DNA of 54,333 nt, the filler included, from Jimgerdemannia flammicorona (lineage: Eukaryota), in NCBI GenBank assembly GCA_003990765.1. It is 2 parts of 2 records of this genome, joined end to end, with 100 filler letters (N's around TTAATTAATTAA, not from the genome) between each part and the next. Parts side by side here need not be neighbours in the genome. Positions count along the whole stretch, not along the records: positions 27,233 to 54,333 come from RBNJ01000661.1; 1 more part is not named here. The stretch is one strand, 5' to 3'. The notes under the pieces are model-generated. The model was not told where the DNA came from and made no database searches. It was given only the letters and a program-made list of their open reading frames with translations. Below are positions 12,780-37,933 of the stretch, piece by piece. A program made the translations under genes and the position numbers. Position 1 is the first letter of the stretch; every line of letters starts with the position of its first letter.

Positions 12780-15700
12780 CTTGTATAGGTTCATAGTACT
12801 TCTTGAGTCTGTTTCTGTATACCATAGTAGGCAGTATGGTCTCTGAGATTTTTCTAAGCCAGAAGGTAGTTCTCTTGATATCTTGCACATAGAAGGGTCC
12901 TTCCCATTTGGGCTCTAGTTTTCGCGACCATGAGGCTTCTATTATATTTCGATACAGTAGAACCTTTTCTCTGATTTAGATGGGTTCTAGGACCTTGTGA
13001 TTCTTTTCTGCATTCTTCCTTATCAGTACTTGTGACTTGGTGATGTAATCTTCAGCCTTCTTCCTGATTTGGTGTAGTCTCTGGATTTCTGCATCAACCC
13101 ATCTCCAAGTTAGGTCTAGATTTATGGCTGAGGTTCTATCAGAATCTTCTTCTCCAAAGAGCAGCTCTCTTGGGGTAAAGTATATGCTCTATGACTGTAT
13201 ATCTCATAGGACAGAGAGGGTGGTTGAGAGATAGTTATCCCAATTCTCATATGTCTCTGAGATCTTTGCTAGGATGTTCTTGAGGGTCTTGTTGGTTCTC
13301 TCTGTCTGTCTATTTCCTTGAGGGTGATATGCAGTGGTCTTGATGTGCTGGATCTTGTATTTCTGATATATTATCTCATAGAATCCATTGACAAATTCTG
13401 TGCCACGGTCTGTTGTGATTTGCTTTGGTGTCTTGTAGTGGTAGATAATTTCTCAGTACAGGAAGTTGGCTATAGAGAGGGCATTGGCTTCTTGTAATGC
13501 TCCTGCCTCTATCTATTTGGTGAAGAGGTCTATAATAACTATAATATAGCAGTTTCCTGATAGTGTTACTGATAGTAGTCCAATGATATCCATTGCGATG
13601 TAGTGGAAGGGGATAGGCTCAATTCTTAATAACTCAGGTGCCTGATCTTGCTGATCTTGTTTCTGTTTTTGGCACTTATCACACCCTTTGACAAATTGGT
13701 GCAGGTCTTCTTCCATCTTGGGCCACCATATAGTTCTTCTTACCTTGTCATATGTGTTGGTTTCTCCTAAGTGTCCTTGCTCATATACTTTCTTCATTAC
13801 TTGATACTTCTTATATTTGGGTATTATTAGCTTTCCTCTCTTTCTGAGTGTAGTGTTGTTTGGTTCAAACTGTTTTTAAGTCCAGTTGATGATGGTGGTT
13901 GTTCAGGGTTTGAGGTGGTTGGGCATCTTCTACTGCCCAAGATAGCTGATTAATCCATAGTATAGCTCCTTATTCATGTTGAATAGTCTTAATGGGGGTG
14001 TTTTGGGGTATCCTTGAGAGTGCATCAGCATTAGTGTTGGTCTTTTCTGAACAGTGCTTAATAGTATAGTCATACTCTTGCAGCCTGTAGATCTATCTGG
14101 CATATATTCCTTTGGAGTTCAGAGTGTGAAATAGCCAGGCAAGAGTGAAATAGTCTGTTTGAATAGTAAAGTATTTCTCAGCTAGGTAGTAGTGGAACTT
14201 GTCTACTGCCCAGACTACTGCTAAGCATTCAAGCTTGCATGACTCATAGTTCTGTTCTGCTCCATAGGTACCTCAGCTTACATAGGAGATGACATATTCA
14301 TATCCATCTTTCTTCTGAGCTAGGACTGCTCTAAGTCCTATAGTACTCGCATCTGTCTGCAGGATGAATTCTAGGTTCCAGTCTGGTCTTCTGAGGATGG
14401 GTGTTTGGGTCAACCTGGTCTTGAGTTCATTGAAGGTTTCTTGGTGCTTTTTGGTCCATTCAAATTTGATCTCCTTCTTCAGTAGCTCGTAGATAGGTGC
14501 TGCAATATTGGAGTATTTTTTGATGAACCTTCTGTAGTAGCTGGCCAGTCCAAGAAAGGTATGGACTTCTGTGGTTATTCTGGATCTCAGATAGGCTACA
14601 ACAGCCTCAATCTTCATGGGGTCTGTGTGGATTCTGGTCTGGTTGATGAGGTATCCTAGATAGGTGATTTCCTGAGCTGCAAACTTACATTTCTTGGGCT
14701 TGATGTAGAGGCCATGTTCCTTGAGCTTCTTGAGGATTAGCTATATGATTGACATATTCCTGTATAGTGTTGCTGAAGATGATCACATCATCAACATAGA
14801 CAAAGAGCTATTTTCCAATCTCATTGCTGAAGACTCTGTTCATCATTCGCTAAAAACTTGCTGGGGCATTGTATATTCCAAATGGCATTCACAGATAGAT
14901 ATAGATGGCATCAGGTGTGATGAAGGCTGATTTCTCACTGGCATCTTGAGTGAGACCAATCTGATGGAAGCCTGAGAACAGATCTAAGGTGGTGTAGTAT
15001 TTGGCTTCACTTCCAAGGGTGGTAAGGATTTCTTGAATATTTGGCAAGGGCTGCCTATCCTTCTTGGTGATGGCATTGAGTTTCCTATAGTCAATGCAGA
15101 GTCTTGGCATAAATTCTCCAGGCTTACTTCCTTTCTTCAGGGCAAGGACAATGGGTGAGGCCCAGGGACTGATAGCTTGCTTGATGATTCCAGCTTCTTC
15201 CATTTCCTTGAGTTCTGCTCGCAGCCACTCTCTGTAGGTAGGTGGTATGGGTCTGGCTTTCTGGTAGATGGGCTTGGTATCACTAGTGTCAACTTCGTGA
15301 TAGTACTTGGGTTCTTGGTTATGGATATCCCTAAAGTCTGTAGTAAGTACTCCTTTATTCTGATGCAGGATCTTGAGAAGTTGTTCCTCTAGGGGAAAGT
15401 TTTCTCCAATAGTATATGTGTGCTTGTTCTGGTCCTTGTCTTTCTTGTATTCAAGTTTGGTAATCTTGGTAGTGGCATAGGCTCCTCTTCCAGTAGATCC
15501 AAAGCCTTGTTCTCCTCTCTTGGTCTTGATGAGTTCAATGGCTTCTATGATCTTGGGCTTCTTGACTTTATAGATCAGCATCTGGCCAATCCTGTCATAC
15601 TTCTTGACTTTGAATGGGGTGATGTGGTTGTGATTTCTGACTATGAGGAAGATCTTACCAGTATAATCAGGGTCAATTACTCCTCCTTCAACTGAGATTT

Positions 15701-17990
15701 TGCTTTTGGCCAAACTGCTCCTGATTTTGATAATTCTGGCATAGTTCTCTGGCAGCTTAACTCCAATTCCAGTGCCAAGTAAGGTGGTGGTCTGTGGTTC
15801 AAGGGTAGCATCTTGAATGCTGACAAGGTCCATTCCTATGGCTCCTTCAGTCTTGTATTCTAGGATCTTGGCTTTAGGGTGAAACTTCTTAACCTTGAGG
15901 GTGATATCTGATTCTTATTCCTCCTCATCATCACTGTCAGCCTGAAGCTCTGGGGGCTGGTCATCTTCTTTGGCTTTCTTTTTTGCTTCAGCGGCTTCTT
16001 ACTCATATTTCTGTTGGCAGATTTTCCTGACTTCACTGATACAGGACCAGCAGTCATTCAGGTGTTCAGAGCAGTACATCCTAGTATCATGGGGGCATCT
16101 TTCTTGAGGGGCATAGCTATCAATGATCTTGTTGTACCACTACTCATCTGTGAGCTTGGGTGTCTTGTTCTTGTTCTTGTTCACTGAGTGCATGAAGACC
16201 TCTGTGTCCTCTTCATCTCCTTCCTCTATGTCTGGTAGGACTCCTTTATGGACATTGATAGAGACTCATATCTTTCTTCCTCTATAGTTGATCTGTATCT
16301 TCTGGGTATTGAGGTCAATGATGGCCTTGGCCTTGTGAAGCCATTGGTTGCTAATGAAGATGTTATAGTTGGTGGCGCTTGTAACAATCACATCTACTGG
16401 GATGGTAGCTCCTTCTATCTTGATGGGGACTTCTCGGATTTTGCCAAGGAAGGTAGCTCATGTACCATCTGCTATGACATAGACCATCTTGGTGGACTCT
16501 TCAATGTCCCAACCTAGATGGTCAATTGCCTTCTTACTCATAAGGTATCCTCCAGCACCAGTATCAATGATGGCATCAAAGATACAGTCTTTGATCTGGC
16601 AGAGGGTATAGGCTGATGTCTTGCACTGGTCTTCGGATTCTTCACCTGAGTTCTCAGATTCTTCTTGTGCATTGTAAGCTTCTACAATCTTGTACTCTTG
16701 ATTCTTGGCAGTAGTTGCAAGTCCTACTCTCAACTGCTGTCTGAAGATAGGGACTTTGGCTAGCTGTCCAAAGGTGGCATTGATCTTCTGTTCCTTGAGG
16801 TCCTTGTAGATACATATCATACTGGTGGATCTTGGTCTTGTGCAGCTTCTGTTCCTTCTTGCTTTTGCTTTCTCCTGAGACTGGAGTAGTGCCTTCTATG
16901 ATTTGGTGGACAGCTTTATCTAACTTTATGTCTTGATCAATCTCCTCGGATTGGGTCTACTTTGAATAGTGACAGCTAGAGTCTTCTTTGGTCTTCCAAC
17001 TGGCTTACTATTGCTCTTCTTATCATAGGGCTTGGACCAGGTTCTGGTACCTTCAGTAGCAGGATAGAATTCAAGCTCCTCATAGTATTCTTCATCATCA
17101 GTATCACCAATCTCCTCAATGACTACTGCATTGGTTTGTTCTCTAGTTCTGCTAGCATTACTTGGTTGGGCTTTACATCTTGTTTCAGTCATGCAACTCT
17201 TTGCATAGTGGCCTTCTTCTCTATATCTGAAGCATATGATATTGCATTCTTCTGTAGCAGCTACAAATCTCTGCACTGGTCTCCTGTTGATGCTTCAGAC
17301 TTCTCTAACGACATCACCAAGGTGTGCAGTCATCTCAGTGAACTGCTTGGCGAGTTCTTCCACTGGGTCAGCTTTGGCTATCTTGGGGGTAGATGGAGTT
17401 AGTTGTCTGTTCACAACTATAGCAGGTATGATACTAGTTGGCTTTGATGGCTCCATCTTGATGCCAGTTATTTTCTCCATTGAGTGTTCAGCAGAGTATC
17501 CTGGCAGTCCAATATCTCTGTGCAAAGACCACTTTCTGATCAAGGGTCAGTGCAGCTGGGGTAGACCAGATTGCTAGGGCAATTTCAGAGTGAACTCTTT
17601 TGAGGAAGGTTGAATCTGCTATTTGTTCCTTAAGGCAGTCATCATAGCCAGCCAAGACAATCTGGTAGTAGATTCAGATATAGAATGAGTTGGGATCTTC
17701 ACTAAGTCCCTAGCAAATAGTATTGAGTTGATCCTTGAGAGCTTGCTTGATCTCTTTGGTATAATATGTTGTTCTGAGAAAGACCTTCATGTTGGTAAGT
17801 TTGACTGTACCAGTATCAGCAATGGTGGCTGCATTGAACTTGTCTCTAGCAGGTCCTCTGAGGCTGACTGGTAGAAGGGCCAATTGTGCATCTACACCAA
17901 GGACTCATATAGTGGCGAATTGTTCAAAGTCTTCAATGAAGGTCAAGATTGACTCTTCAGTAGTATATCTATAGAATGTGGGGGGATGCA
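12780..17990 (-). pseudogene. gag-pol polyprotein of family A (stops and frameshifts)
   Basis: gag MHPPTF...FIEDFEQFA; zinc-knuckle relic CFRYREEGHYAKSC; protease AIIDTGAG; RT SPWASPIVL, LDLFSGFHQI, YVDDVIIFS; RNase H LQTDAS...DALSR; integrase GHLG...CDKCQ, TTDRGTEF, TTAYHPQ, KWEGPF. Confidence 0.95.
15489..15900 (-). pseudogene. dUTPase domain between protease and RT
   Basis: All five trimeric dUTPase motifs are recognisable: GMDL, IRSSLA, GVIDPDYTG, RIGQM, RGEQGFGSTG. Confidence 0.93.
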
Positions 17991-20974: not shown

Positions 20975-21284
20975 ATTTTGGGATTGGTGGTTCTTGTTGG
21001 TTGCTGCTACTGTAGTTCCTTGATTCTTCTTTTTATATTCTTCAGGATGCTTGTACTGTGGTCACAATGACTCACAGTTGGTCATCATTGCTCATCTTGT
21101 ATACTGTATGATCTTTTTGTACTCTGATCTGGTGGCTTGCAAGAAAAGGTTGTCTCTTGTGCTGATGTCATTATTCTGGGGTCACCATTATAATATATAA
21201 ATTTCTCATCTTTGGATCATTATTGATGAGTTTAGTTATGGTTCAAAATGACATATGTAGAATTATCTCTATATAAAAATAAGT

Positions 21285-22940
21285 ATGAAATTAGTATACA
21301 TTAAATCTACTATGGAACCAAAAAACTACAGTACTATTAGAAGTATTTTGAAAAAAGAACAGAGTGAAAAGATTGTACCATATATTTTCAAAGTACTTGA
21401 TACCAAAACTATTCAAGAATATTTGGATAAAGAGAGAATTACCTACAAAATCTACCAACAATTAGACAGTTTTAATAGAAGTATAAATATCTTTTACCAA
21501 GAAGATATTTCTAGACAAAGTCAAGGAGAATTAAATTCTAAAAAGTGAGAATTTCTAGAAACTTTCAAAGAACCAAAGAAAAAATAAAAATATAAAGAGT
21601 AAAGATATATAGAGGTAGTCCTATGTATTTTTTAATATATTGTATAGAAAAAATTTAACAAAACTAAACAAACTATACATAAAATATATATAGTAAATAA
21701 TAAAAATCTAACTAAATACAAGAAGACACTCTATTTTTTAGAACTTGGTTGCAGTTGTGGTTGCTCTACCAAAGTATCTAAAGAAGAGTTTGTCAAATTG
21801 TGTAAAGCCTTTTAAGTTCTTTCCAAGTCTGAACAAGACATCTTTTTAATAACTCAACTCAAGGCAATAGATAAGAGAGTTAATACTAGTCAATGCCTTA
21901 AGAATAGAGTTCATATCAATAAGAAAACTATCTATTATTGAGATTATAATACATCTCTTTACCAGAAGACCTATTTGAATATACTAGAAATTAGTTGAGC
22001 TCATTTTGAAAAATATCAGAAATTATTTACTGAATAATGGTCTTCTATTATAGCTCTATAGTAATACTAAAAAGATACTTAAGTAAAAGACCAAAATAGT
22101 TATTAATAAAAATATGACTATTATAGTAAAGAATTTTCTTTTGAATTATGCTGAAGTTCATGGCCTATCTAGTCTAGTAAGAAATATTAATTGAGTCACT
22201 CAATCAATTATCTTTTTATCTGCAGAAATAAGCTATAAATCTATTTACTATAATTTTTTAGCTAGTCTAGAAGATAGTACTCTGTACATACTCAAATATG
22301 ATATGTTTTGCAAATTATAGCATCAACTGACCCTATATATCCAAATTATAAGCCCCTGAATTAATTTATATAATACTTATTAATACTTATAAAATAATTT
22401 ATAATTTAAAGCTTATAAAGAAAAAGAGGCCTAGGATTTATTAAAGAAATATAAAGAGCACCTAGCCAAAGCCAAGTTAGAATAAAACTATTACAACAGA
22501 AATACCAGTTAGTAGAAGAATAGAGAAAGTTAATTGATTAAAATTATTCTATCATTATAGCAAAAGGTAAAATACTATATTATAGTATTGATATAGTTAC
22601 TCATTATAGTTATGACTGAGCTCAGAATATCTATATATCTCATTCAGATCAACAGATTGATAAAGTATATTTGTTTGATATCTAAAATAAAGTAATATGA
22701 GAGTAAATTAATTATATACTGAATGAGAATGAGCTTATCAGAAAGGGTCTAAATAGTGTACTTAGTCTGATTTTTGATAGAGTTAAGCAATTGAATAAAG
22801 GTAAAAAGTATCTAAAAATTACTTATAATAATATAGGTAAACAAAATAAAAATATTATTATACTTTAGTTTTACCTATACTTGGTAATTGCTGGTTATTA
22901 TAAAAGTATTGAATTAAACTTCATAGTTCTGAGATATATG
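21285..22940 (+). pseudogene. Heavily decayed Sola-like DDE transposase relic
   Basis: Recognisable blocks GCSCGC, EQDIFL, YAEVHGL, FLSAEISYKSIY, HYSYD*AQN, NYILNENE, ITYNNIGKQNKN (for DNxGGQNKN) and ELNFIVLRY (for FMVPGH). Confidence 0.7.
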
Positions 22941-24307
22941 TATGAATCTGAGAAATAGATTTATCATAAATTTAGATATAGAATAAGTTTGGCTATAAAT
23001 TATAGGTATTTCTGCTTCTTTTATTTATATTTTTATAGCTTTTTTGTTAAGTTCTCATCTAATTACTAAATCAGTAGCAAATGATTTAGATTTCATTTTT
23101 TATATAAGTTCTTAGCATACTTCTTTAATTTGGTCTCAGGTTTCTTAGTTAATAGTATTGATATTATTAGATAAATGATTTTTGATAGAGATTACTATAT
23201 TTCCTATTTTGCTATAATTTGGTAACAATTTTGCTTCTCTTAGCAATAACAGTATTATTTTCTGTTGCTTAAAAAACTTTATTACTTTCTCAGCTCTTTT
23301 TTGAGAGAAAGCTTTTCATAAAGCTCTTTTAATTCCTAAACTTCTATAATTTTCTTTATATTTAAGAACAATTCACATATAAAAATAGAGTGAGTTTTAG
23401 ACAGTAATTGGTCCTATTGATATACCAATTTTGTAACCCTCTAGATTACATATCTTGTTAACTTTTCTACAATATTCTAAAGTATTAGCAAAATTTTTAA
23501 TCATTCTTATCTAGTAATTTCTTTAAAATTTTCAATATAATATCTAGTACATAGTGCTAAATGACCTCTAGTATTTGGTCTTAAAACAATACCAGCAGTT
23601 ATCCTATCTTTTGTAGAGATTTAAGATTTAAGCTCTTTTTTTTAAGAAGTTTTATTTTGTTATATATATATATATATGACAAACTATTTTACTTTCTTCT
23701 ACACTTTTTGGACAAATATAACTTGAAGTATTATCTAGTTTTCAAGAAAAGTGTTTATTTTGCTCACCTCTTTTAATTTTTTTATAACAATTCTAACATT
23801 GAGAGCATTTATATCCTCAACTGTCTTTATAAGTGGTAATATCTCAATTAAGTATGATTTGATATTAATTATAATAAATAGTTATTCTATCTCATCTACT
23901 ACTATCTTTTTGATTAATAATTCTTATTCTGAAAGATCAATCAAAAATTTCTTTATTTTTACATTTTTGTAAGACTTGATTAAAGAACTTTATTTTATTT
24001 CTTTCTCAATCTTTATTAGTATAAGCGCACAACCTCTAAGCCACCGAAATTACACGTCACCCTCTGAACAAGCCACTGAGATCACACGCGACCTCCAAAC
24101 AAATCTGGAAATCACCTGCTTGATCACAAAGCTGAGTCAAACTGAAGTCACAGCGCATAAAGCTGAGTCAATACGAAGTCACGGAACACAAGATCTACAC
24201 AAACGGAACATTACCAATCAGGACCAAATGCATATATACTGAGCACCAAGACGCGTCAAGTCAGAGAACCAAAACAAACAACAACCACAACTTCCAAACA
24301 CACAAAC

Positions 24308-25405
24308 ATGACCACTGAGATCTACAACTGCATCCGCACTGACATTTGGAATGCCATTGACAACCGAGCTACACCCCCTCTGCCCCTCATGAATATCCAT
24401 AGCCTGGCCCCCCTCTACTTCGTGGAAGCCCGATGGAATGCCCTGAACATGCTTAGCGAGGCCCACCGAATCGGACAAATCTCAAGCTACTACCAGATCA
24501 GCCGCCTCTTGGAAGACATGGTCGAACACCACCACGATACAGACATTACCCAGATGTCTCAACACCAGAAGCTCATCGCCCGCAAACATCGAGAACTCTT
24601 CTATGAGTACAATACCTTTATTCTCCGCCTCCGAGTTACTACTAGCGAAATGGTTGCTACCCTGTCCTACGGCCAAATTGATGACATAATACAAGAAATC
24701 AACCACAAGTACCTCGAGTATGTCGAAACTACAGACAGAACCTTCCCACACCCCGATGACCATATCCTGCAAATGCCTCAAGTCGGATATGCCATGAAGG
24801 ATGTCTACGATATAATCCACTTCGATGAAGATGAAGCAGAAGACAACGACCCCTCTGACACCGATATGACCTCTAGCCAAGGATCTCTGCCAACCCTAAT
24901 CACTCCACCAACCTTGCCAATGAACTTACAACAGTTCATAACTACATACGAGACTTATTGAGACAATGACCACTGGCATGAATACCAACCCGCATTCACC
25001 CCCGATTACTTCAACTACAATGAAGAGACCGGAGAACACAACCTGTACCTTCAGATAACCCTCGAGATTGAACCAACCACTCCACCACCCAAGTACGAGC
25101 GACTTGAATCACAGCCGCCAGCATACTATAACCCCGCAACTCATAGTGCTGTAACCTATAGAAGGTACGCAGACAGTAAATCCGATGAAAGCGAAGACAA
25201 TACACCCATCCTTCACCCACCAATACCTTACCCAGCATATGAAACAGACGATGCTATTCTGTGGGACGGAGACGAAGTCCCAATGTATTACTACCTCAGC
25301 CAACAAGGAGAAGTAATCCATGAACCACTCTTCCTAGATGACTACTTCATCAGAGATGATGCAATTGATGGTGATGTCATCGAAGACTACCCAGATAGTG
25401 CCTAA
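24308..25405 (+). CDS. LTR-encoded (U3) ORF of family B, 365 codons with one internal TGA
   Basis: The 217-aa ORF continues in frame past TGA 24959-24961 for a further 147 sense codons to TAA 25403-25405. It has an acidic, proline-rich C-terminal half and lies entirely within the LTR. Confidence 0.8.
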
Positions 25406-25903
25406 ACCTATAAATAGTCTAGCAGTCATAGTATAGATAGATTAGCCTTGTACGACGTGACTGTGAACTGACTCAGCAGTCAGGCGATCTCTTGACATGT
25501 CAGATCACACTTGTACTATGTGACTGCATTCCGACTCAGCAAGGCACTTAGTGCTACATCCATATCTAGCATAGTCCAGATAGTCCCTCACTAGTATAAA
25601 TACCCCCTCCCCCAGACCTCAGAATCTCAGACTTGAACAGACAAGAACATTCCTGAATACTTCCCCACAATACCCCTTTATACAAATACTCCTAGTATAG
25701 CAATATTATGAATAGCAAATAAACCTATTCCATAACCCACAAACCACTCTTAAGTAAATCCGCTCTCTGTTAGGTCCTACTCCTAACCCCATCATGAAAT
25801 TTCCTAATTGGATATTGTCTGCAGCGATACACCAATTCAACTAAGCTGGTCTTAGTTTCTTGAACTTCCTGAAATACGGAAAATCCTGAACATCTAGAAC
25901 TAG

Positions 25904-27132
25904 TCTGAAAAAGGACTTTGGTTGAGACGTCAACCCGATCTTGAAATCAATAAGCGTAGAGGACGTACTCTATATGAAATTGATCTTGACCATAAGAAAA
26001 CAGTCTTCCAGAATATCCAGAACTTCCAGAAAACCCTTCTAGAACTACGTAACGGTCACTCTAAAAAGTAACCCTCTTACAACTTGGTAGCAGTGGTTTA
26101 CAATCCAATTCCACTTCAAGACGCTTCCTCACCCTACAACAAACCCCTCTGAGAATTCCTACAAGTTGGTATAAAGCCCAACCTCTGAACTGGAATTTAT
26201 CCTGAACCATCTGACAATCTGGAGAGAATTGAACCTGACGTACAAGGACAATTTGACCTCCACACCTGCAACAAGTGGGATAAACTTCATTCAAAGAAAG
26301 AAGTACTCAAGTTAAACCAGCAAATAGGCGAAACCCTATTCACCGAACTCCTTGCACTACACCCAGCAAGTCAAGACGAAGAAGGTCTTATTGAAGCCTT
26401 CTTTACTCTTCTCAACAAGAGTTTTGTCAGCTCCACAAATCCGAGCGACCTAGGACAACCAGCAGCAGTCTTTCTAGCCTTAGTTCCTCACGAAGCCCAA
26501 GCCTCTGTAGCCAAGTGGCTCAACTCTACCGACTATCACCGTACCAGGACCAAGACTGCCTTATACTACCGATTCCAGAACAGCAAGGCCCGCCATATTC
26601 TTAAGGAAGAAGCAAGAGAAGCCCTTCATCAACTACCTGACCCTGAACCAGAAGCAGGCCCTGCCACTGCCCTACCTGAATCTGAAACCAATACCGAACC
26701 AGAACTTGACTTTGAATTAAGTCCATCTGAAATCAGATATACAACTGATTCCGTCTACTTTGACGCCGAGCAAACCCAATTACACGGGGACCAAACCGAA
26801 GAGGAGGAGGAGTATCTCAGTGAATTCGATCCCGGATACACCACCGAAGGAGACGCACCTCCATCAGGCCAGAACACACCGACACAGCAACAAACAGCTA
26901 TTTATCAAGCCCTCACTCCAGACCCACAGCTATTACTCCAGCAACTTACACAGACTCAAAGAACACCCTCACACTCTGCACCAGTACCTCAAGTAGTACC
27001 AGTAACACCACTACCAGTAGTCCAACCGCCTCCAGTAAACAACATGGCGAACCAACAGATTCTAGACCTCACCGCCCAAGTGGCTATAATGGCAGCAACC
27101 ATTACTGCTTTAGCCGAACAGACCCGACCTAC
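25904..27132 (+). pseudogene. Long reading frame starting inside the LTR and leading into probable gag
   Basis: About 409 codons with only three stops (26069, 26150, 26186). First ATG at 27044 (MANQQILDLTAQV). Confidence 0.65.
26085..26093 (+). promoter_or_regulatory. Primer-binding site, initiator tRNA-Met type
   Basis: TGGTAGCAG 3 nt after the LTR end, matching the complement of the eukaryotic tRNAi-Met 3' end. Confidence 0.7.
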
Positions 27133-27231
27133 NNNNNNNNNNNNNNNNNNNNNNNNNNNNNNNNNNNNNNNNNNNNTTAATTAATTAANNNNNNNNNNNN
27201 NNNNNNNNNNNNNNNNNNNNNNNNNNNNNNN
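27133..27231. other. Assembly gap / artificial contig linker
   Basis: N run with an embedded TTAATTAATTAA (27177-27188), which gives stops in all six frames. Confidence 0.95.
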
Positions 27232-28588
27232 NTTTTTTTTGGAGGCTGTACCACCAGCAATACACTAGACTTGATCCAAACAACTTATATCTACAACCAT
27301 CTACAATTTTCCTCCTTCGTTTTTTATTCCCATCCGGACCTTTCGCGAGAGCGCCTCAATCAACCGGACACTCTATCTTACTAATTCCCCAATCCGGGCT
27401 CCCCGGATTTTCTTGTACGACCACTCCGCTCACATCCGGACGGGGGCCTGGGGCCCAGGAAGAGACTTGCATGTAAAAAAAATAAACAAAAAGTTGATGT
27501 CTTTTCCCGGCAAGGGATATCTTGGCAAGCGCTACTCTTTGCCTATGCCAAGGATTGGCTAGCCTTCGTGCCAAGAAGATTGCCTTTTTGACATTTATAT
27601 ACGTACGGGGTGAGTGTATTGGAGATATATAACAAAGTTCGTGAATGCGCTGCAGCCTGTCAACAGTCGGGCTTGGGATCATCGGCTAAACTCGGCGGTG
27701 TAGAGGCACGTGCTCAGAAATCGACAAGCGAAATCCTTGTGTAACCCTACCATTAGCCATTAACGGAAGTCTGCTACGCGCTTAATAATTAAGCACGTAG
27801 AAGCTCCCAGTGGACTTCTTCCGCAAGGATTACTTAGAGGAAGCTTACATATCATAGTGGAATTATCTAGTAAATGGCAAGAACATGTATAAATAAGAAG
27901 AGGTTGGGGATGACAATAAAGCAGTTCTGAAATCTTGAATAAGTAAGCGCATATTGCCAAGGATCGGATATCCAAGGAATATCACATACAACAGGTCGCT
28001 TTTCAGGCTCCCCTGGTGGCCTTCAGACACGTTTCTTAGTAAGATCCTTAGCATACATCCCCAACAAATTCCTTCTATTAACCGCTCATATCCACGCCCT
28101 CTTTATAATCATTTTCCTATTGATAATTTTTGTGCAACCTTCACAGGCAGCCCTACCACGTGGCAGGGACGCCAAGACAGCGCCTTCGGAGATGTCCAAA
28201 CCTTCGACTCAGTGTCCGCGCCGACCACGTAGCGCAAATCTCCGTCACTTTTTCTGGAGTAATTCCGAAATTTGGAAGGCGAACTTAGTGCCTTTTTCCC
28301 ATTTGCCATTTGGGCCCACTCGCTTGGGGCCGTGAAAAATATGCCCGCCAAGCTGACGTCACGCTCCGTCAGGTCCTTTGTTGACGCCCGGATGGCTTGA
28401 GTCGGACTTTGATAGACAGCATTGGCCATTGCTAGTCAGCACCATCACCAAAGATAAACTGGTGCTCCTTTGCAGAGGCAGCCCCATCAGGTAGAGCCTG
28501 GCAAACTCACAGGTGCATTATGCTATTATATAAGGTAAAAAGATGTTAAGGATGTGAGTTTGAGAGTATGGTGAGAACATTGTCAAAC

Positions 28589-29133
28589 CTATTTATAAAT
28601 AAATACATCTTCCAACAAAGCTTGAAGAAAGATCCTGTGGGCCCCATTCACATCTCTGTCAATGTTGAGGCTACACCTCTTGCAATGGAAGATCTTTTTT
28701 CCTTTAAGCTTCTGATTTATCTACTCACACTAGCTATATGTCTTACTTGTGTATACCTCTGATATGAAGCAAACATGTTTCCCAAACTCTTCTGCCTTTG
28801 ATACCAGCCTCTCTCTAAACCTTGTATGTGCTCATATCATTATCTTGCATACTGTCCTACTGCTGATCTTCCAGTATCTAGTCTTTCTCTCCATCTTACT
28901 GCTATTGAATCTGAGGATAATAATGATATCAAATATCTGGACCAGTCACAGTGCAGCCTTCTTGTGAACTCAGATTGTGGATGCAGAATCACAATCTCAT
29001 CTATCTGTATCTTATAGAGTTATACTTTCTAGTAGATATCCTATACAAGAGATAAGATTATTAAGAGTAAGATATAAGTGAACTAGTTTCTGAGTATCTT
29101 TGATATCTATCTTATCACAGCTATGTATTAGAG
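28589..29133 (-). pseudogene. Fanzor2/TnpB-family RNA-guided nuclease relic (C-terminal half)
   Basis: VHKKAAL*LVQIFDIIIILRFNSSKM...TVCKIMI*AHTRFRERLVSKAEEFGKHVCFISEVYTSKTYS*CE*INQKLKGKKIFHCKRCSLNIDRDVNGAHRIFLQAL: RuvC-II, zinc ribbon and DRDxNGA RuvC-III motifs. Confidence 0.9.
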
Positions 29134-29445
29134 TAGTGCTCTCAATGAATTGAATCAAAGGTCCTATTTAATTTGAGATTTGATTCAAACCCTATTTTTC
29201 AAAATATAATAACTCAATGAAAACATGTTCAAATTTAATAATCTTTAGCTTATTAGATTTCTCTATATAAGAGAAATCCAATAAGCTAAAGATCATTAAT
29301 TTTGGACATATTTTTATCAAGTTATTATATTTCAAAAATAGAATTCAAATTAGATCTTTAATTTGATTTTATTCAAACTTGATTTGAATTGAAAAAACTT
29401 CAATTTAATTTAATTTGAATTAATTCAATTTATTTGAAAGTACTA
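29134..29445. mobile_element. MITE / foldback element
   Basis: Imperfect TIRs (tagtgctctcaatgaattgaat and attcaatttatttgaaagtacta) and an internal hairpin of about 170 bp centred near 29267. No target duplication seen. Confidence 0.75.
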
Positions 29446-29699
29446 GTTTGAGAGTTATAGTTATAGTTTTGATTTATTATAGTTCTTTGTTTTGATATAC
29501 TATATGTTTAGTATATATGCTTTTGGTCCTAATTGATAAGGTTCTATTTTCATATATCTTATATTCTATAACTTTGAGTTTTCTTAGCTTCATAATCTAT
29601 AACTTCAGTTTGACTTAGCTTTATAATCTTATATATAGTTTTCAGATTTGTTCTAAGAATAATGTATAATTTTAATAGCTTAGAAATTATATACTTACA
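29446..29699 (-). repeat. Hypermutated fragment of a family B LTR (first ~250 bp), preceded by a purine tract
   Basis: The reverse complement aligns to 24020-24298 with mostly C>T/G>A changes. AAAAAGAAAGAAG lies just upstream on the minus strand, suggesting a 3' LTR. Confidence 0.8.
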
Positions 29700-29866
29700 A
29701 CTTCTTTCTTTTTAGTTTTCAATATTCTTGTCAAGTTTTTCTAATTTGATCTAGTATTGTTATACTATTTGGATGGTTAAAAGTCTAGTAATGTCCTTTT
29801 TTCTCAGAAAGTAGTATGTTTATAGTAATATATTAAATTTATATATTAAAGAGTTATAAGTTCACT

Positions 29867-31026
29867 CCTTTCTCCGCTACCTTACCGGTCACAAGGTTTG
29901 GTAGGCGATCTTCTGAGTCTCCTTTCCCCTAATATTACCCCCTCTACCTCGGGTTGATTTGCTGTGCCTGCAGGGGCATAGTGGGAGGAGGGCGATGGTG
30001 ATGAGTTGCCCCTTTATCGGTGTCGGATCGGTGCTTCCTCCACTTTTTTGCAGATTCTGGTGCCTTCAGCTGTATCTGGGGTGTGCCCATTTTGGTGCGG
30101 CATCTTCTTTCTTTTGCCGTCGCCAACAAGGAGTTGTCTCGGTGTATCTCGGGCTATATAGGGAGTTGGCCGACCTTGGGCATCAAATACTCAGTATAGG
30201 TTACCTGCAGGTCCTCGGTGCCTATGGTGGGGCCCTCTGGCTTTGGCGAGCTTCCCGGCGAGCATGGTTCTGGTATAGGTGACTACTTTTCGGGTGTTGT
30301 CGGGATGGGAGGGGAGATGGCCATCACAGATAGGCGAAAGGGCGATTATAGTGAACCAGTAGGGTGCCAGGCTGGGGGCGGTCATCAGGGCTGGGGCAGG
30401 TGCTGCTTCGGTGGGGCCTTTTGATTGGTGCGGCATGGTTAGGTGATAGGTGTCACTCTTGGCTTCTTTTGGTGGGTAGTGGGGTGAGGCCCCAGTCATC
30501 AGAGGGAGTCGACGGGCCTGAGGCTACCCATTTCAGGCATCTTGGCTGCACTCAACTGGAACCAGGAGCTGACACGGCAACGTGATCGAGGCCCGCAGAC
30601 TTGAGTAGTGGGGTATTGGGGGTTTCCTCCCACCTCATGTGTAAGTCCTTTACTCATCTCAACTGGGAAAACCAGGCCCTACCCACCGTATTGTACTTTG
30701 ATGAGGGTTTTTTCTTTGCCTGTCATTCTCTTTGGGGTGGTAGGGGCTATTCTATTCGGCTCAGGTGTGACCTTGTACATACGTTGGGTTCTCGGGCATG
30801 CGCTTTCGGTCGTTGGCATATGGTTGGGTTTCCCCTGGTGGTAGGGAGAGTATGATGCACAGAATGAGGTGTGGGCTTATTAGCCCTGCTGCGCCTGGCA
30901 TGGTCGAGCTGCTGGACAATAGCTAGCCTAGGTTTATGGGGGGGCAGTGCTTAGTGGGTGGTGGGGGAGGGTTTTGGCCTATATAGTCTAGGTTCCCTTC
31001 CAATAAAAATCTGCAGGACATGAGTC

Positions 31027-31096
<70 letters not shown>
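29867..31096 (+). mobile_element. Non-autonomous poly(A)-tailed retroposon, copy 2
   Basis: Colinear with 10144-11326 over its whole length. Has AATAAA and a ~67-nt A tail. Confidence 0.88.
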
Positions 31097-31098
<2 letters not shown>

Positions 31099-32862
31099 AA
31101 TCACTATTCTGAATAGAAATCTTTCAACAATAGTAAGGCAGATTGTTTTAGAATATATATATACTATCTCTCTATTAATGAATATCATCATAATGATATA
31201 TTTATAGTTTAGACTAACTGTTATAGGTAATGATATGTACTATATAATTACTATATTTAATGAGATCAGTATCATATCTATATATCAGAATCTTGAATAT
31301 ATTAAGATTATTATATTATATAACTGAAATAATTATATAATCAATTTCTTCTTATATATATAGTCTCAAATATTTTATAGATTATCTGAATTATCTCATA
31401 GTATCTTCTATCTACTGCTAGCTACAGTACTGTTTGAGTTTACTGATCTCTAATTTCTATATCAGTACTAAATATAGTATAGAGTATTCTTACAATCTTG
31501 AGATAATTGCTCTTTACTATAATATATAATAGTGATATTTTATTATATTCTTGTTAATTGATATTAGCCTTGATATCTATAACTAAAATCTTATGAAGCA
31601 ATATCTATCTATTATTATATATAACAACTCTACTAGTTATATATTCTCTAAAAATTATTAGGAGGTTTAATTATTACTAAACCAGTATCTCAATAAGATA
31701 TAAGAGTGTTTTAATCATGGTATCAATTGCATATTCACTTTTATCAATAATTGTCAGCTTAGTGACATCATGCATCTCTTACAGCTACTAGTCAGATTGA
31801 TTAATCACAATATCTGAGAGAGTGGTAGTATTCTGCAAGCAGACATCAGTTACAGATATGCTATCATTATTAACTGATATCTCTGCAACTGGTTCTGACA
31901 TCTCTTACTACTGCTGATCAGGCCAATGAATCCAATAATTCCAATCATTCATAGTGTCAGGAGGTCCATGAGAGAGACCTAATAAATAGGAGGCCACTAT
32001 ACAGCTAAAACAAACGTCTCCCCTCTGGGCCCTCAACTTAGTGGGGTAAATGCTGGTGCTGTATTCTTTGGTCACCTATGTAGGTTTCTGAAATACTGTT
32101 CTTGCATTTAAGTTTTTTTTTTTTTAAAAAAAAAAAAATTGAATCGCACAACGAGCAACAAAGATTTGTGTCCAAGCCAGTTGGGTTTGCAAAAGGAATA
32201 TATTAATTTGGTTTCAAGGAATGCGAAGGGATACAATGTGCAGTTCCAAAAATACTCTAGTCATAAACAACAGCACAGTACAATATCTCACCTGTGCCAT
32301 AAAAAAATAATAGGCTGCAACGTTCCAAATGGTTGATGCCGAAGCGAGATTCCGATGCGTACGGTATGCTTCAGCGGCGCACAAGGCAACAGAACCATCG
32401 ATATTTACAGGCATCCAACTTGACATCTACGCGAAAACTGAGAGATATTTTGAGAGGTTTGGAGATAACCTCGAGGCTACTGATAACCATACGACGCCAG
32501 AATTGACAGAAAGACCTGATCTACGTCTGATTTCTCCGTTGATATGATTGTTTCAAAAATTCTTGCAACCTGAGAACAAAACAAACCTCTCACTGCGGAT
32601 CCTCAAAAAAAACATAATATTGGAAAATAGACTGGCCTTCAGTAAGATTGTGAAAAATGATTTTACACTCTAGCCTTCGGGAACCCCTACGAAATTGTAC
32701 TTTGAAATTGCACTATCAAGAAATTGGTCGAGGATGGGTCATAAGCTCAGACAGAGATCATTTCTGATTTTTTTATTTGCTTGAATTTCGTTAAGCAGAT
32801 GTTTAAGTGATTTTTACAAGCATGTAAACAGGTACAACTACCATAGACTACAACTTGCAAAA

Positions 32863-33560
32863 TTAAACATGAGCTTGCCCACGGTCCTCATCAATGCTTA
32901 TCGTAATACCCCTCTCACTGGTGAAGTCAACCCAACCTTCTTTCTCACCCTCGTATCCACCAAGACCCAACCACTTCCCGAATGGCCATTGCTTTTTCTG
33001 CAGCAGACCGGCAAATTTGTCCGCCAAAGCCAACCACGCCCAAAAATACTCAACGATCACTTTGCCTGTTTTGCATCCAACCATGACTTTCGATGCGTTC
33101 CACCCGTCGAGATATCCAATCTGGATGACCTTCTCATCGTCGTAGCTGTAGAGACTGTTCTTGAGATCTCTTGGAACGAGTTGTGCGGGCGTCAACGGTT
33201 TTAGGTCAGCGCCCACTCCCAGGATGAGGTTGAAGCCATCCGCAATGCGGATCGCTCGCCCACGATTCGTCTGGACGATCTTTGCAAGATCTTGTTGAGG
33301 AGTGTGCGCGAGTTCTTCAAGGAGTTTCTTGGATAAGGAGTGGTCGAGTGGCGGCGGTGGCTTGAATACTTTGCTGTAATCTCTTAAGTCTCTTAGAACT
33401 TCGGGGGGAGGTTTGTTGGGGTCATGCCAGCGCCTATTTTGAGAATGCACGTATTCAATGGAGCACACCATTCTGTAACTCTGAGGATAGTATCAAACTA
33501 GTAACAATATTCTTACCCGAAAGCAGAATCACATTTATCTTCTTCAGGAGGTTGGTTCAT
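32863..33560 (-). CDS. Hypothetical protein with US22/SUKH-like C-terminal pattern
   Basis: Intact 202-aa ORF 32863-33471 in CpG-retaining DNA. A probable upstream exon (ATG 33560, short GTAAG...ACAG intron) joins in frame. Pattern VIQIGYL...VMVGCKTGKV...LALADKFAGLL. Confidence 0.6.
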
Positions 33561-35230
33561 CGTAGTGTCACTCTTGTTTGAAGTCTGGAAAGTGTTTGAT
33601 ATGTTTAAGAAGTCTGGAAACGTTTAAGAGGTCTGGAAAGTTTTTGATACGTTTCGTCATCGCACGTGTCCCATTCGTCATCGCATACGTATGTCTAATT
33701 TTCAACGGAAAACGTCGCTTGCACCATTACACTTTAATCCACAATGGCGTTAATACCCTTGCTCAATAACATTACCCAACAATTGCGGGGTCCAGTGGAT
33801 CTATCGCTTTTACAACAACTGAGGACCGACATCCGGATTTCCACTGTCCATGCTGTAAGTATCAATATCAATACTTTGATGACTATGGATTAAGCTGAAT
33901 AATGTCACTTTTACAGTTTTTCTCCTACTTTGAGTCAGAGGCGTCTACACCTGCGGAGGGAAATGCTGTAGCTGCATTTCTGCAAAATGTGTCCTGTTAT
34001 AAAGCCCATAGCTTTGGTCCACAAGCGAGAATCCTAAATAACACAACCTCATCAGGATATGCCGAAATCGCAGCTCGAGCGGTATGTAATGGAACTTAAT
34101 GAAACAATGGATCAATTGCCAACTAACGTTGACAAAATCTTGGATATTTCGCCTTCCAGATAACCGCGCATATTAGCACTCTCAACCCGGTGCCTTCTAC
34201 AGACAAAATCTTGTTGATGATGACCCGATTTCTAGACTACTTCTACGTGTCTGGCACACATGCTGGCCTCCTGCCTTTGCGGTCGTTAAATCCCCGTCTT
34301 ACTACTCCGAACCCAACCCTCCCGTCCCTTCGTGAATAATAAATTGGATGAATATATGTTTGTGTATTGGGCGAATGCGTGCATGAGGAAAGTTCTGTCT
34401 CGAATGCGTTGCATCGGTCAGTTCGAAGAACCCGACATGAAAAGGTGTACAAGAGGGAGGTGGGTGGGAGTGAAAACTGTATGGTAGCGATTAAGCGGGA
34501 TGGGAAGTGGTCAGGATGTTGGTGAACAATAATTGCATAATTGCTAATTATAAATGCATATTGCCTAATCGAGTAATACACGTCTTTAACGCGCTATCCC
34601 TTCGGGATCCCTTCATTAAATCCCCGTCTTACTACTCCGAACCCAACCCTCCCATCCCTTCGTGAATAATAAATTGGATGAATATATGTTTGTGTATTGG
34701 GCGAATGCGTGCATGAGGAAAGTTCTGTCTCGAATGCATTGCATCGGTCAGTTCGAAGAACCCGGCCCAAAGAAATTAGATGAGCTTACATCGTGGTCGT
34801 AGGGCCTACACAGAGCGTGGTCATTAGGATCTGCATTATGTTAATGCGATTTGTCCGTGGTCTAAGGCCCTGCCCGAGTAAGGAGAGATAGCCTGCCCAT
34901 GGTCTTCAAATCCTACACTACCCGCAATCTTGAGACTTAGCATTAGAGCGCATGTCCTATCCGGGTCTTTGTGATCTTAGGATTCTGCGTCATGGGGGCA
35001 AGTGAGCCAACCATGGTCTTCAAATCCTGCACTACCGCAGTCATAGGACTCGGGTCGTTGTGGTCTTAGGATTCTGCGTCATGGGGCGTACCAAACCATG
35101 GTCGTGGAAACTTCACTGCCTCACAATCTTGGGACTCGGCGCAAAAGCGGGTCCTATGTGGGTGCTCGTGGTGAAGAGTTCTACATGGATGGCCGATAAA
35201 GGTTGGATGTGACGGCGGTGATTTGTATGA

Positions 35231-36250: not shown

Positions 36251-37933
36251 GTTGGGGTCTGGTCAGCATCAGGGGCGAGGGAGTAAAACTGCAGGAGGTC
36301 GAGACGAGACAATGCGTCAGCAATGGCATTAAGACAGGAGGGGATAAATGATGCTCGTAATTGGAAAGAGTATGAGGCCCCCAGAAAGAGAAGTTGGTAA
36401 AGGAGTTCAAGGAGTTTCGGGTTGCAAGAGGTGCCGAAATTGATGCAGGACATCGCGGCCTGATTGTCAATATGGACGTGGATGCGGTGAAACTACCAAC
36501 GGGAGCCCCACGTAGCCGCAGCGATGACAACGGTATATAATTCCTTAAATTGGATATCTTTGGGAAGAAGATCTGCGGGCCAGGGGATAGAGAACCATGC
36601 TCCATCGAAAAATGCTGCAAAGCCATGGGTGCTACTGGCATCAGTCCAGAATCGATCATCAGTGACCTCTTCCTATGGAGCGATAATCGTGCTCCATTCC
36701 ACAGTGTGAGGAATTGTAACCACCAACGTAAGTTAGCAAAAAAATCGGCAGTCAAGTTGATATGGTGATCGGGGTGGGAAACGGAGGTCGAAATATTGAT
36801 AAAACAGTGAAGGAAGGGTCAGCCCTGTGGAATGACCCGACAAGCGAAGGAAAGGGACCCAATGAGTGAAAGGATATCCCATTTGGTGGCGGTTGCCCGA
36901 ATAGAGGTTGACTGGGTGATGAGGTTGGTTATTGTTGTGAGAATAGATTGGATCTTGCCCTCAGGAAGACATGCCTCCATGGTAGTTGTGTCGATCTCGA
37001 TGCCCAGAAATGGAAGACAGGTAGAGGGGCCATCCACCTTTTCGTCCCGCATGGAAAATCCGATAGCATGGCAGATGGAAAGGAGAAGATGGAGTGGTAT
37101 TGCAGCTTGAGATGGGTGGCAGGCCCCGAAAGTATCATCGACATACCGAATGATATCATTCAGACCATGGTGTTTGAAAAGCCATTCGAGCATTTTACCA
37201 AAGACATTGAAGAGGAATGGAGATGAATGTAGTCTGAAGGGAAGGAATCAGTCAAAATAAAAAAGACCCTGCCAGTGGAAGCCTAGCAGTTCCCAATCCT
37301 CCGGATGTACCAGAATATGTCGGAAGGCATTCGCCAAGTCGACTTTGAACAGTAGATACCTCTGCTGAGATGTCGTACAATATCCAATGCTTGATCAAAG
37401 GCAGCATACTTGAGAGTAAAATCATTGGGTGATATACCATCATTTACTGATGTACCATGAGGCCAAGAGAGATGATGAATGCAGCGCCGATTGGTGGATC
37501 CTTTCTTTGCCACTGTACCCAGCGGAGACGCCCAGAAATTCAGGAATGGAGGGTGGGAGAAGGGGCCCGCAATGCGGCCGGCTGCAACTTCTGTTGTAAT
37601 GTCATCGGAGATCGCTTGAGGAAAGGCATGGGCCAAAGGTAGATTACGGCATGACTGAGGGTGGCGTGGGCCTGCAAAGCCTATGCAGACACCACGGTAT
37701 AGAGCAAGTAAGATAGTGGATAAGAGATAGTGGTTGGGGAAGTCTCGAAATGCAACTGCCCAAATATCGGCTCGCAAGGGAACCGTAGGGAGAGGGAAAA
37801 TGTCTAAAATATGTTTGGCAGAGGTCAGGGAAGTAGAGAGAGGAAAGGTGAAGGTGGTGTTTGGAGGTCGAGGGGGTGTCATTGTAGAAGGGGCGGAAGG
37901 GAGGACCGTTATCAGGGCTTCCGATACGCCCAT
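36240..37933 (-). pseudogene. Reverse transcriptase / RNase H of the Ngaro element
   Basis: SPLGTVAKK, HHLSWPHGTSVNDGI, KVDLANAFRHI, RYVDDTF, FLGIEIDT and NAIADALSR. Frameshift near 37365 and internal stops. Confidence 0.92.

Follow-up and report, generated by a model that had tools for sequence, protein, structure and literature searches.

Remains of a probable IS607-like Fanzor2 element in the genome of Jimgerdemannia flammicorona

The Fanzor nucleases carry a signature in which the glutamate of the RuvC-II motif is replaced by proline or glycine, with an alternative glutamate located 45 to 50 residues downstream, as described in passages of PMC10530073 and PMC11832414. According to parts of PMC10530073, PMC10711439, and PMC11832414, the shifted glutamate is common to Fanzor1, Fanzor2, and a clade of bacterial TnpB proteins, and a passage of PMC10711439 gives the DPG motif of RuvC-I as a feature of the Fanzor and pro-Fanzor lineage. 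The mechanism of the living Fanzor relatives is described in sections of PMC10432273, PMC10530073, PMC10711439, and PMC11832414, and in the first 3 of these the scaffolds of the omega RNAs, or reRNAs, start within the open reading frame (ORF) of the nuclease and finish at the right end of the element. Here, we describe the remains of a Fanzor gene in a stretch of 54,333 nucleotides, filler included (hereafter the window), from the genome of Jimgerdemannia flammicorona (GCA_003990765.1), in the part that comes from RBNJ01000661.1. With a probability of roughly 0.82, we read these remains, here called the relic, as a dead remnant, the rear part, of an IS607-like transposon that formerly bore a Fanzor2 gene, with its right end at position 28389, a ruined RNA module, and no present function. 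The recognizable remains cover about 580 bp, from the RuvC-I region to RuvC-III, and are followed by a 3' tail (table 1).

The relic consists of one minus-strand frame at positions 28588 to 29167, which contains 193 codons, 8 in-frame stops (1 TAA, 4 TGA, and 3 TAG) and 0 frameshifts. A first-pass annotation, made by a model from the sequence alone, had proposed a minus-strand frame outside the ORF track at this place, and this frame was recovered. It is missing from the default list of ORFs because the open pieces between its stops are as short as 51, 37, 33, and 43 amino acids. The TnpB-family C-terminal motifs that the annotation had claimed in the frame were also confirmed, in that Pfam, the protein library, and a profile of our own were all positive. 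The Pfam profile PF07282 (Cas12f1-like TNB) was matched by 2 pieces in the correct order, the first at profile positions 1 to 32 (E 6.6e-6, 26.6 bits, cut-off 26.3) and the second at positions 38 to 60 (E 2.6e-5, 24.7 bits). The NCBIfam profile guided_TnpB gave an E value of 2.4e-11 and 43.5 bits, and the shortfall against its cut-off of 100 reflects the fact that no more than a third of the protein is left.

The relic frame was read through with its stops written as X (P0001), and a comparison with 1.84 billion representative proteins gave 4117 matches at E<=1e-3, of which 1063 reached E<=1e-10, a level that lies far above chance. The top match, a protein of 410 amino acids (P0002), had an E value of 1.2e-30 and 41% sequence identity, and residues 217 to 410 of this protein were aligned by BLASTP with residues 1 to 190 of P0001 (E 3e-39). 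The Protein Atlas entry for P0002 confirmed the family assignment and nothing further. A word-indexed protein search with the relic returned 469 candidates, 0 of them at E<=1e-10. Our own profile, built from the 104 relatives of 340 to 700 amino acids among the 150 matches listed, matched positions 28583 to 28969 with an E value of 4.4e-46 at profile positions 340 to 467 of 492, and no second match was obtained in 27233 to 32600 or in the whole window. Judged from these matches, the core of the relic at 28589 to 28969 can be taken as certain. The stretch from 28970 to 29167 is supported by 8 of the 150 matches listed, with pairwise alignments that extend to 29125 to 29167, and by a related locus, L081, the alignment of which covers relic residues 5 to 185.

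The motif states were read from an alignment of the relic and 17 relatives. The 2 motifs that had been quoted in the first-pass annotation, IIIILRF and ISEVYTSKT, are both present in the frame. In the former, the canonical RuvC-II position is occupied by leucine (L85, codon CTC at 28913 to 28915), one C>T step away from CCC, and proline is found at this position in at least 90% of the rows of the relatives. In the latter, the invariant alternative glutamate (E137, 28757 to 28759) is kept, 52 residues downstream of L85. The relic thus has the canonical glutamate replaced and an alternative one downstream, as in the Fanzor and pro-Fanzor proteins. The earlier statement that this rearranged RuvC-II is characteristic of Fanzors holds for the lineage, but since the shifted glutamate is common to several groups, it does not separate Fanzor2 from Fanzor1 and the bacterial TnpB clade. 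The DRD of RuvC-III is kept (28652 to 28660), whereas the first zinc cysteine (C144) reads tyrosine (TAT), so that 3 of the 4 cysteines remain. The column of the RuvC-I aspartate, where the alignment is weakest, reads glycine (D2 to G), which leaves the D-E-D triad incomplete, with the glutamate and the RuvC-III aspartate present. At the place aligned with the DPG of the relatives, the relic reads GPL and the neighbouring frame reads RTF, in a region that is heavily decayed. One tryptophan conserved in the relatives has become a TGA stop.

Of the 77 columns that are conserved in the relatives, 47 are kept in the relic and 30 are changed. The changed residues can be reached via C>T/G>A alone in 18 cases, via the reverse direction in 1 case, and via neither in 11 cases. 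CpG is absent from 28404 to 29874, the last CpG before the block being located at 28403 and the next one at 29875, so that the suggestion of a CpG-retaining flank that resumes near 28430 was about right. The observed/expected ratio of CpG is 0.98 in the flank at 28100 to 28440 and 0.57 at 29867 to 30400, and the ratio (CpA+TpG)/(ApC+GpT) is 1.6. Read by the index rule for repeat-induced point mutation (RIP) in Neurospora, the composition points to CpG deamination rather than to Neurospora-type RIP. CpG-free AT-rich blocks at 21000 to 24000, 28404 to 29874, 30906 to 32014, and 44000 to 47000 adjoin blocks with a CpG observed/expected ratio of about 1, and the excess of TpG and CpA in these blocks points in the same direction. 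With 8 stops, the RuvC-I aspartate and one zinc cysteine lost, and the front half unrecognizable, the gene is dead and cannot make a nuclease. Nothing suggests any present function of the relic.

The best match of the relic in the PDB was 9b0l, "TnpB-like protein L79", which is the mimivirus Fanzor2 (ApmFz2), with an E value of 3.1e-9. The same chain was matched by 3 full-length relatives (E 9.7e-24, 3.3e-24, and 3.5e-17) and by a profile of the relic and the 17 relatives (E 2.4e-52), which was collinear with chain residues 138 to 509. The next PDB matches of this profile were an AI-designed RNA-guided nuclease (1.2e-25) and the ISDra2 TnpB (3e-18). This profile, of 393 positions, was also collinear with residues 10 to 369 of the ISDra2 TnpB. 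Fanzor2 differs from Fanzor1 in having a compact core of TnpB type that lacks the REC insertions, and in the relic the N-terminal half is missing.

In scans for related loci, 294 relatives were confirmed on viral and 496 on metagenome contigs, and the locus counts given here rest on 80 relatives from each set. Pfam was run on the upstream ORF of 23 viral loci, drawn from 26 picked at the top of the list, and in 14 of these an ORF with MerR-HTH and Resolvase domains, as in the IS607-type TnpA, was located directly upstream of the nuclease gene. A TnpA profile built from these 14 identified a TnpA-like frame in 60 of the 80 viral loci and 49 of the 80 metagenome loci, and several of the loci without such a frame have too little upstream sequence to hold one. 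The closest relatives, found among the 80 metagenome loci, were L081 and L092, with 55% identity over 118 and 91 amino acids, respectively, followed by L083 at 52% (best segment) and by L137, L082, L085, and L103 at 47% to 50%. A TnpA-like frame is present in all of these 7 loci, and the Resolvase domain was detected by Pfam in 8 of 8 segments of the closest relatives (E 1.1e-20 to 2.3e-4), 3 of which scored slightly below the curated cut-off. On the basis of the PDB matches and the TnpA-bearing closest relatives, the relic was therefore assigned to the IS607-borne Fanzor2 lineage, in line with the original proposal of a Fanzor2-like relic of the TnpB family.

Two further observations were made on these relatives. 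L083 and L137 have decayed in the same manner as the relic: their GC content is 0.30 to 0.34 and their CpG observed/expected ratio 0.51, tnpA contains stops, and the nuclease frames are broken. In L082, L085, L103, and L109 (predicted proteins P0018, P0021, P0154, P0026, and P0028), a long N-terminal extension shares the motif YWN..LW.PT..NSWF and overlaps the tnpA coding region in another frame. This extension may be a gene-calling artefact that seems conserved through the conservation of tnpA, or a real overlapping frame.

No tnpA gene, as found in the IS607 elements of the relatives, was detected anywhere in the window by Pfam, 2 TnpA profiles, or tblastn. Searches by tblastn with the 150 relatives against the whole window, by the profile of the 104 relatives, by tblastn with the 9 closest metagenome frames, and by the 2 TnpA profiles with tblastn gave nothing beyond the relic other than poly-lysine artefacts at 31023 to 31249 and chance matches at E>=0.06. 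Pfam found no transposase among the 84 ORFs of at least 50 amino acids in 24000 to 34500, in which there were 2 low-complexity matches on a poly(A) tract, and no trace of tnpA or the nuclease N-terminus was seen in 31098 to 32100 by eye. Since neither tnpA nor the N-terminal half of the nuclease was found in the window, the IS607 membership of the relic rests on its relatives and on the motif at its right end.

This motif was identified in L092, L083, and L137, which represent 3 copies of one element that are 86% to 91% alike. Their similarity extends from the ATG of tnpA to 1 to 2 nt past CCATCC(G/A), which gives an element length of 2023 bp. The 3' tails of L081, L084, L087, L104, L123, and L135 are likewise closed by ..ATCCATCCG or ..CCATCCG. 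Among the 116 loci in which the RuvC-III motif is intact and is followed by 150 nt or more, CCATCC is present within 500 nt downstream in 17, of which 7 have it at 100 to 199 nt; the background is 0.11 per 500 nt. In the gene sense, the relic reads TCAAGCCATCCG at 28400 to 28389, which corresponds to 11 of the 12 bases of the L092 terminus.

Contigs of uncertain kind from 2 public runs, here called X1 and X2, the latter under the same organism label, were matched to the window. In X1, 7 contigs begin to match exactly at 28389, and the sequences that precede this position in the contigs are mutually unlike (agreement 0.45). Furthermore, L081 can be aligned over its last 90 nt with 28487 to 28389 (local alignment z 4.0, equalled by 2 of 300 shuffles). 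The motif, the 7 contig breaks, and the L081 tail therefore all place the predicted right end of the relic element at 28389, which is about 45 to 50 nt beyond the end at about 28430 to 28440 that had been claimed in the first-pass annotation. The right end was found by anchoring on the terminal motif, since a MAFFT alignment of the tails had misplaced the relic. At the nucleotide level, the 3' tail showed no similarity to the 80 viral loci (best E 0.13, none by nhmmer) and a single non-collinear match of 22 nt to the 80 metagenome loci (E 0.014). No terminal inverted repeats were found in 27850 to 28650. By analogy with the living elements, the first 20 or so bases of the flank, 28368 to 28388, would have served as the guide.

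A second AAGCCATCCG is located at 33233 on the plus strand, and was rejected as it lies inside an unrelated ORF and is preceded by sequence that by eye is unlike the tail of the relic. Loose ends were also noted at 28434/28435, where 4 contigs (3 in X1 and 1 in X2) stop matching. The last 47 nt of the element, 28389 to 28435, are common to at least 7 other places in X1, and the bin at 28348 to 28478 has a depth of 525 compared to 373 for the exact unitig.

The coding part of the relic is a single copy in run X1, where it is contained within one exact unitig at 28414 to 29136 with a depth of 51.7, which is at the single-copy level. No further contig in X1 is 80% or more identical to the coding part, nor would the bin depths accommodate one. 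It was also noted that one X1 contig joins 28433 to 29979. In X2, the sequence 28144 to 28614 is present with 5 mismatches, 11 nt deleted at 28561, and 10 nt inserted at 28207, and its depth is 294 compared to a baseline of 128. Another piece in X2, which is more diverged, covers 28388 to 28659, and the match ends close to the upstream edge of the extra sequence of about 110 nt in the 3' tail described below. X2 has no cover over 28741 to 29526.

In the relatives, the codons for A-R-x-I-x-L-R-A, located directly past RuvC-III, can form a hairpin of 9 bp. For 109 ungapped codon-aligned sequences, 57.5% of the cells in the helix are paired compared to 49.4% after shuffling (0 of 500 shuffles as high), and the covariation score of 0.239 compared to 0.151 exceeds that of every slid control. 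In the subfamily of 35 of 108 sequences with GCN CGN ... CGN GCN, the 5 free pairs, defined as those not fixed by selecting this pattern, are standard in 95.4% of the cells, as compared to 65.5 +/- 2.6% in the shuffles (0 of 2000 as high) and 41% to 64% in the slid controls. Pair 21-39 is present in this subfamily as A-U, U-A, U-G, C-G, and G-C, and hence in all 4 Watson-Crick types, and 27 of the 35 members have all 9 pairs. RNAalifold on 7 close relatives yielded the identical helix. Because the hairpin changes at synonymous sites, these data provide good evidence for an RNA structure that overlaps the end of the ORF, in keeping with the published scaffolds, and we infer that the hairpin belongs to the omega RNA of the relatives.

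The hairpin and the right end are 93 to 131 nt apart in 7 relatives as compared to 254 nt in the relic (28642 to 28389). In the relic, 4 of the 9 pairs are broken (C.A, C.A, A.C, and C.U), and the codons of the 2 arginines are CAC and CAA, which a single G>A step separates from CGC and CGA, respectively. About 110 nt, at approximately 28511 to 28620 with borders that are uncertain by a few nucleotides, have no counterpart in the relatives, and L081 has an insert of 49 nt at the same place (L081:2726-2774, right after the hairpin). The extra sequence in the relic would represent an insert or a former intron, and the spot that it shares with L081 may be an old intron position, although the splice signals are unconvincing in both. 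Downstream of the TAG at 28589, a second frame reads QALPDGAASAKEHQFIFGDGAD-stop, with the stop at 28432 to 28434, and ALPDGAA in this frame is identical to 7 residues of a 3'-terminal DNA frame of L081, as read by eye. This stop leaves a tail of 43 nt, which can be compared with 44, 46, and 39 nt in L084, L104, and L135, respectively. The second-frame piece is probably the ancestral C-terminus.

Folds of 28400 to 28649 in the gene sense were no better than shuffles (z -0.22, -0.05, -0.78, and +0.04), and the antisense strand had a z of -1.63. The description of 28440 to 28590 as hairpin-prone was thus not upheld, while the claim that it is GC-richer held weakly (0.43 compared to 0.38 in the coding part). 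A search of 27800 to 30000 against Rfam at E<=1 gave 3 sub-threshold matches to plant miRNAs, all on the foldback repeat at 29218 to 29318. With 4 of the 9 pairs of the hairpin lost and about 110 extra bases that split the scaffold, the RNA module of the relic appears to be ruined too.

We considered 5 other explanations for these observations. The first is the anatomy given in the first-pass annotation, with the scaffold at 28440 to 28590, the end of the element at about 28430 to 28440, and the guide starting there. It was correct in that the right end of the element is located at the 3' end of the gene, which in this family is where the omega RNA is made. The boundary fits with the end of the CpG-free block close to 28430 to 28440 (last CpG at 28403), and also with the divergence of the copies at 28443/28444, given that the exact multi-copy unitig stops at 28443 and the single-copy unitig of the relic begins at 28414. 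However, the terminal motif and the 7 contig breakpoints are located at 28389, and the L081 tail aligns all the way through to this position. Furthermore, the conserved stem of the relatives maps to 28620 to 28642, outside the proposed scaffold, which by homology would start at about 28642 rather than at 28590. The copy of this stem in the relic is broken, and folds of 28440 to 28620 are only as stable as shuffles. We therefore regard the earlier anatomy as unlikely.

Several findings weigh against our own reading. Neither tnpA nor the N-terminal half of the nuclease was detected in the window. The tails of the 8 relatives other than L081 align with the relic non-significantly (z -1.1 to 1.5), so that 1 of 9 is significant. 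The terminal motif is located 265 nt past the RuvC-III motif in the relic, compared to 104 to 182 nt in the relatives, a long distance that we attribute to a putative insert. The contigs of X1 and X2, being of uncertain kind, carry no information on expression. Finally, an exact unitig of 297 nt in X1, at 28147 to 28443, spans the proposed end with a depth of 373, which is 5 to 7 times that of single-copy sequence (52 to 74). Since this multi-copy unitig spans 28389, the flank and the end of the element appear to be repeated together, and from its depth the repeated unit as a whole may not end at 28389.

This last finding would be accommodated if 28389 marked an internal boundary of a composite host repeat, with the match to CCATCCG a coincidence. 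The flank and the last 55 nt would then belong to one repeat, as suggested by the exact unitig, and both the 8 non-significant tail alignments out of 9 and the frequency of CCATCC by chance, 0.11 per 500 nt, would be in agreement with such an explanation. However, it is improbable that a match of 11 of 12 bases should fall by chance at the exact break of 7 contigs, with the right gene upstream and in the right orientation, and the alignment of the L081 tail (z 4.0) also argues against it. We consider a composite repeat to be improbable as an account of 28389. A related suggestion is that several copies of the host repeat carry the element at one and the same site. The omega RNA of Fanzor2, with the flank as its guide, would have directed the cutting of repeat copies that lacked the element, and repair from an occupied copy would have filled them (homing). 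If true, the pattern would show that a Fanzor has homed under RNA guidance in nature, within a eukaryotic genome. The depth of the unitig is more simply explained by a segmental duplication, or by a host repeat that has captured a fragment of the end, and we find homing quite improbable.

The relic could also have arrived in integrated DNA of a giant virus rather than as a resident cellular transposon. The Fanzor2 proteins are termed virus-enriched in a passage of PMC10530073, and the 294 relatives on viral contigs include many on contigs of 100 kb to 2.2 Mb. Against a viral origin, no other gene of viral type is present among the 84 ORFs of at least 50 amino acids in 24000 to 34500, the closest relatives (50% to 55% identity) are on metagenome and not on viral contigs, and Fanzor2 is, according to a part of PMC10432273, broadly present in fungi. 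The content of the window is eukaryotic, with domains of long terminal repeat (LTR) retroelements (reverse transcriptase, RNase H, protease, and dUTPase), a poly(A) retroposon with a target duplication, and a gene with a GCIP domain, and the relic is thus located in a "eukaryotic or eukaryotic-virus genome", as expected for Fanzor2. An arrival with a giant virus is in our view very unlikely.

It is still less probable that the 3' tail yields a functional small RNA, as an orphan omega RNA for an intact paralog elsewhere. The last 47 nt occur in multiple copies and have been well preserved, and ORF-less "ghost" elements and extra copies of guide RNAs are described for other Fanzor families in parts of PMC10432273 and PMC10530073. 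However, the broken hairpin, the extra nucleotides that split the scaffold, and the fold z-scores of about 0 all speak against a functional RNA, as does the 11-nt deletion at 28561 in the copy of the second strain. Lastly, the relic can hardly be a Fanzor1, although a shifted glutamate with proline at the canonical site also occurs in that group according to a passage of PMC10530073, since the matches to ApmFz2 reach 2.4e-52 and the closest relatives are located behind an IS607 tnpA, an association that the relevant part of PMC10711439 reports for no Fanzor1. Five PDB searches (with the relic, 3 relatives, and the profile, the last at E<=10) listed no chain named Fanzor1, a result limited by the unconfirmed presence of the solved Fanzor1 chains in the PDB copy searched, which is a further point against our reading; 3 Fanzor1 proteins have been solved (PDB 8GKH and the 9CE*/9CF* series; PMC11423790).

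Table 1. Coordinates of the relic, its tail, and the neighbouring repeats in the window
Feature	Positions	Strand	Basis or remark
Flank, multi-copy host repeat, CpGs kept	27955..28388		depth 373-892 vs 52-74 single-copy
Right-end terminal motif, reads TCAAGCCATCCG in gene sense, last base 28389	28389..28400	-	L092/L083/L137 terminus, X1 breaks
47-nt right-end-terminal segment, multi-copy in source organism	28389..28435	-	X1/X2 loose ends, depth 525 vs 373
Right-end-proximal tail, homologous to last 90 nt of L081	28389..28487	-	local alignment z 4.0
CpG-free block around relic, 1471 bp	28404..29874		CpG count
Second-frame piece, QALPDGAASAKEHQFIFGDGAD-stop (putative)	28432..28500	-	translation; ALPDGAA match to L081
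Extra sequence of ~110 nt	28511..28620	-	in-frame TAG 28589-28591; 10-bp stem 28502-28511 with 28553-28562
Relic core: RuvC-II region, shifted Glu, zinc ribbon (TNB), RuvC-III	28589..28969	-	own profile, PF07282, guided_TnpB
Remnant of conserved 9-bp RNA hairpin (A-R-x-I-x-L-R-A codons)	28620..28642	-	4/9 pairs broken
Weaker part up to RuvC-I region, DPG reads GPL	28970..29167	-	BLASTP to P0002, 8/150 listed matches, L081; outside own profile
Foldback repeat, 69-nt arms, 86% complementary, 5-nt loop	29196..29338		just upstream of last recognizable codons
1.2-kb poly(A) retroposon splitting CpG-free DNA	29867..31096	+	poly(A) 31031-31096 (66 nt)
Second CpG-free AT-rich block	31097..32014		possible ruin of element front, from its size

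Upstream of the relic, there are 530 bp of AT-rich sequence, and the GC content over 29170 to 29866 is 0.20. The foldback at 29196 to 29338 is probably a small repeat of its own, and X1 contains variants of it, at places 29229 to 29274, with C/G where the window has T/A. A second copy of the retroposon is located at 10144 to 11326 and is 88.5% identical, with a target-site duplication of 19 nt. If the 2023 bp of the related element, the roughly 120 extra nt, the foldback, and the retroposon are added together, the predicted left end falls at about 31.9 kb, near the end of the CpG-free DNA. The block at 31097 to 32014 may be the ruin of the front of the element, with the N-terminus of the nuclease and tnpA, but showed no protein signal in profile, tblastn, or by-eye searches. 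In the wider surroundings, pieces of an LTR retroelement (protease, dUTPase, reverse transcriptase, and RNase H) are located at 14273 to 16895 on the minus strand, and a second fragment of a reverse transcriptase at 36822 to 37247. Two runs of 44 Ns, at 27133 to 27176 and 27189 to 27232, are located 1.2 kb from the relic.

If the relic once functioned as its living relatives do, the transcript of the last 100 to 130 nt or so of the element would have formed the scaffold of the omega RNA, beginning with the conserved hairpin in the final codons and finishing at the right end, and the next 20 or so bases of the flank would have acted as the guide. The nuclease would have cut copies of the site that lacked the element, after which repair would have restored it. 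The decay proceeded mainly through C-to-T and G-to-A changes of the CpG-deamination type, which stripped the block of every CpG, and further repeats, the foldback and the poly(A) retroposon, flank and interrupt it.

The relic is an ordinary fossil, and its family is known. Decayed copies of Fanzors are common, partial copies having been counted in one fungus (in a section of PMC10432273), and the relic alone matters little. It is of some use for annotation in that it marks an IS607-like Fanzor2 family in the source organism, and searches for intact copies and their guide RNAs can draw on the motif ..CCATCCG at the right end and on the hairpin in the last codons. It also illustrates cleanly how mutation directed at CpG destroys the protein of such an element together with its RNA module.

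Among the described systems, the relic resembles the mimivirus Fanzor2 (Acanthamoeba polyphaga mimivirus L79, 9B0L; parts of PMC11832414 and PMC10530073) in the C-terminal half with RuvC and zinc ribbon and in the shift of the glutamate by about 50 residues, and it resembles the IS607-borne Fanzor2 elements in that its relatives are located behind a MerR-HTH/Resolvase tnpA and that the RNA module occupies the 3' end as far as the right end. The canonical RuvC-II position is occupied by glycine in ApmFz2 and by proline in the relatives of the relic. Unlike the mimivirus Fanzor2, the relic is dead, has no recognizable tnpA or N-terminal half, and is known here from DNA alone. The bacterial TnpB proteins with a shifted glutamate ("TnpB2" or "pro-Fanzor"; passages of PMC10530073 and PMC10711439) share the DPG, the alternative glutamate, and the IS607 tnpA partner with the relatives, whereas the relic is located in eukaryotic DNA, between retroelements, and has undergone CpG decay of host type. 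In Spizellomyces punctatus, as described in part of PMC10432273, full, partial, and ORF-less "ghost" copies have a common right end, and the last 47 nt of the relic are also multi-copy; that family belongs to Fanzor1, however, and has inverted repeats of 30 nt, whereas no inverted repeats were found around the relic. The closest counterparts are L081 and the family of L092, L083, and L137, which share 50% to 55% protein identity with the relic, the ..CCATCCG end, and the hairpin in the last codons. These loci differ from the relic in that they keep tnpA and all or most of the nuclease frame, and in that the tail after the stop is 44 to 90 nt, compared to 200 nt in the relic when counted from the first in-frame terminal stop or 43 nt from the alternative stop.

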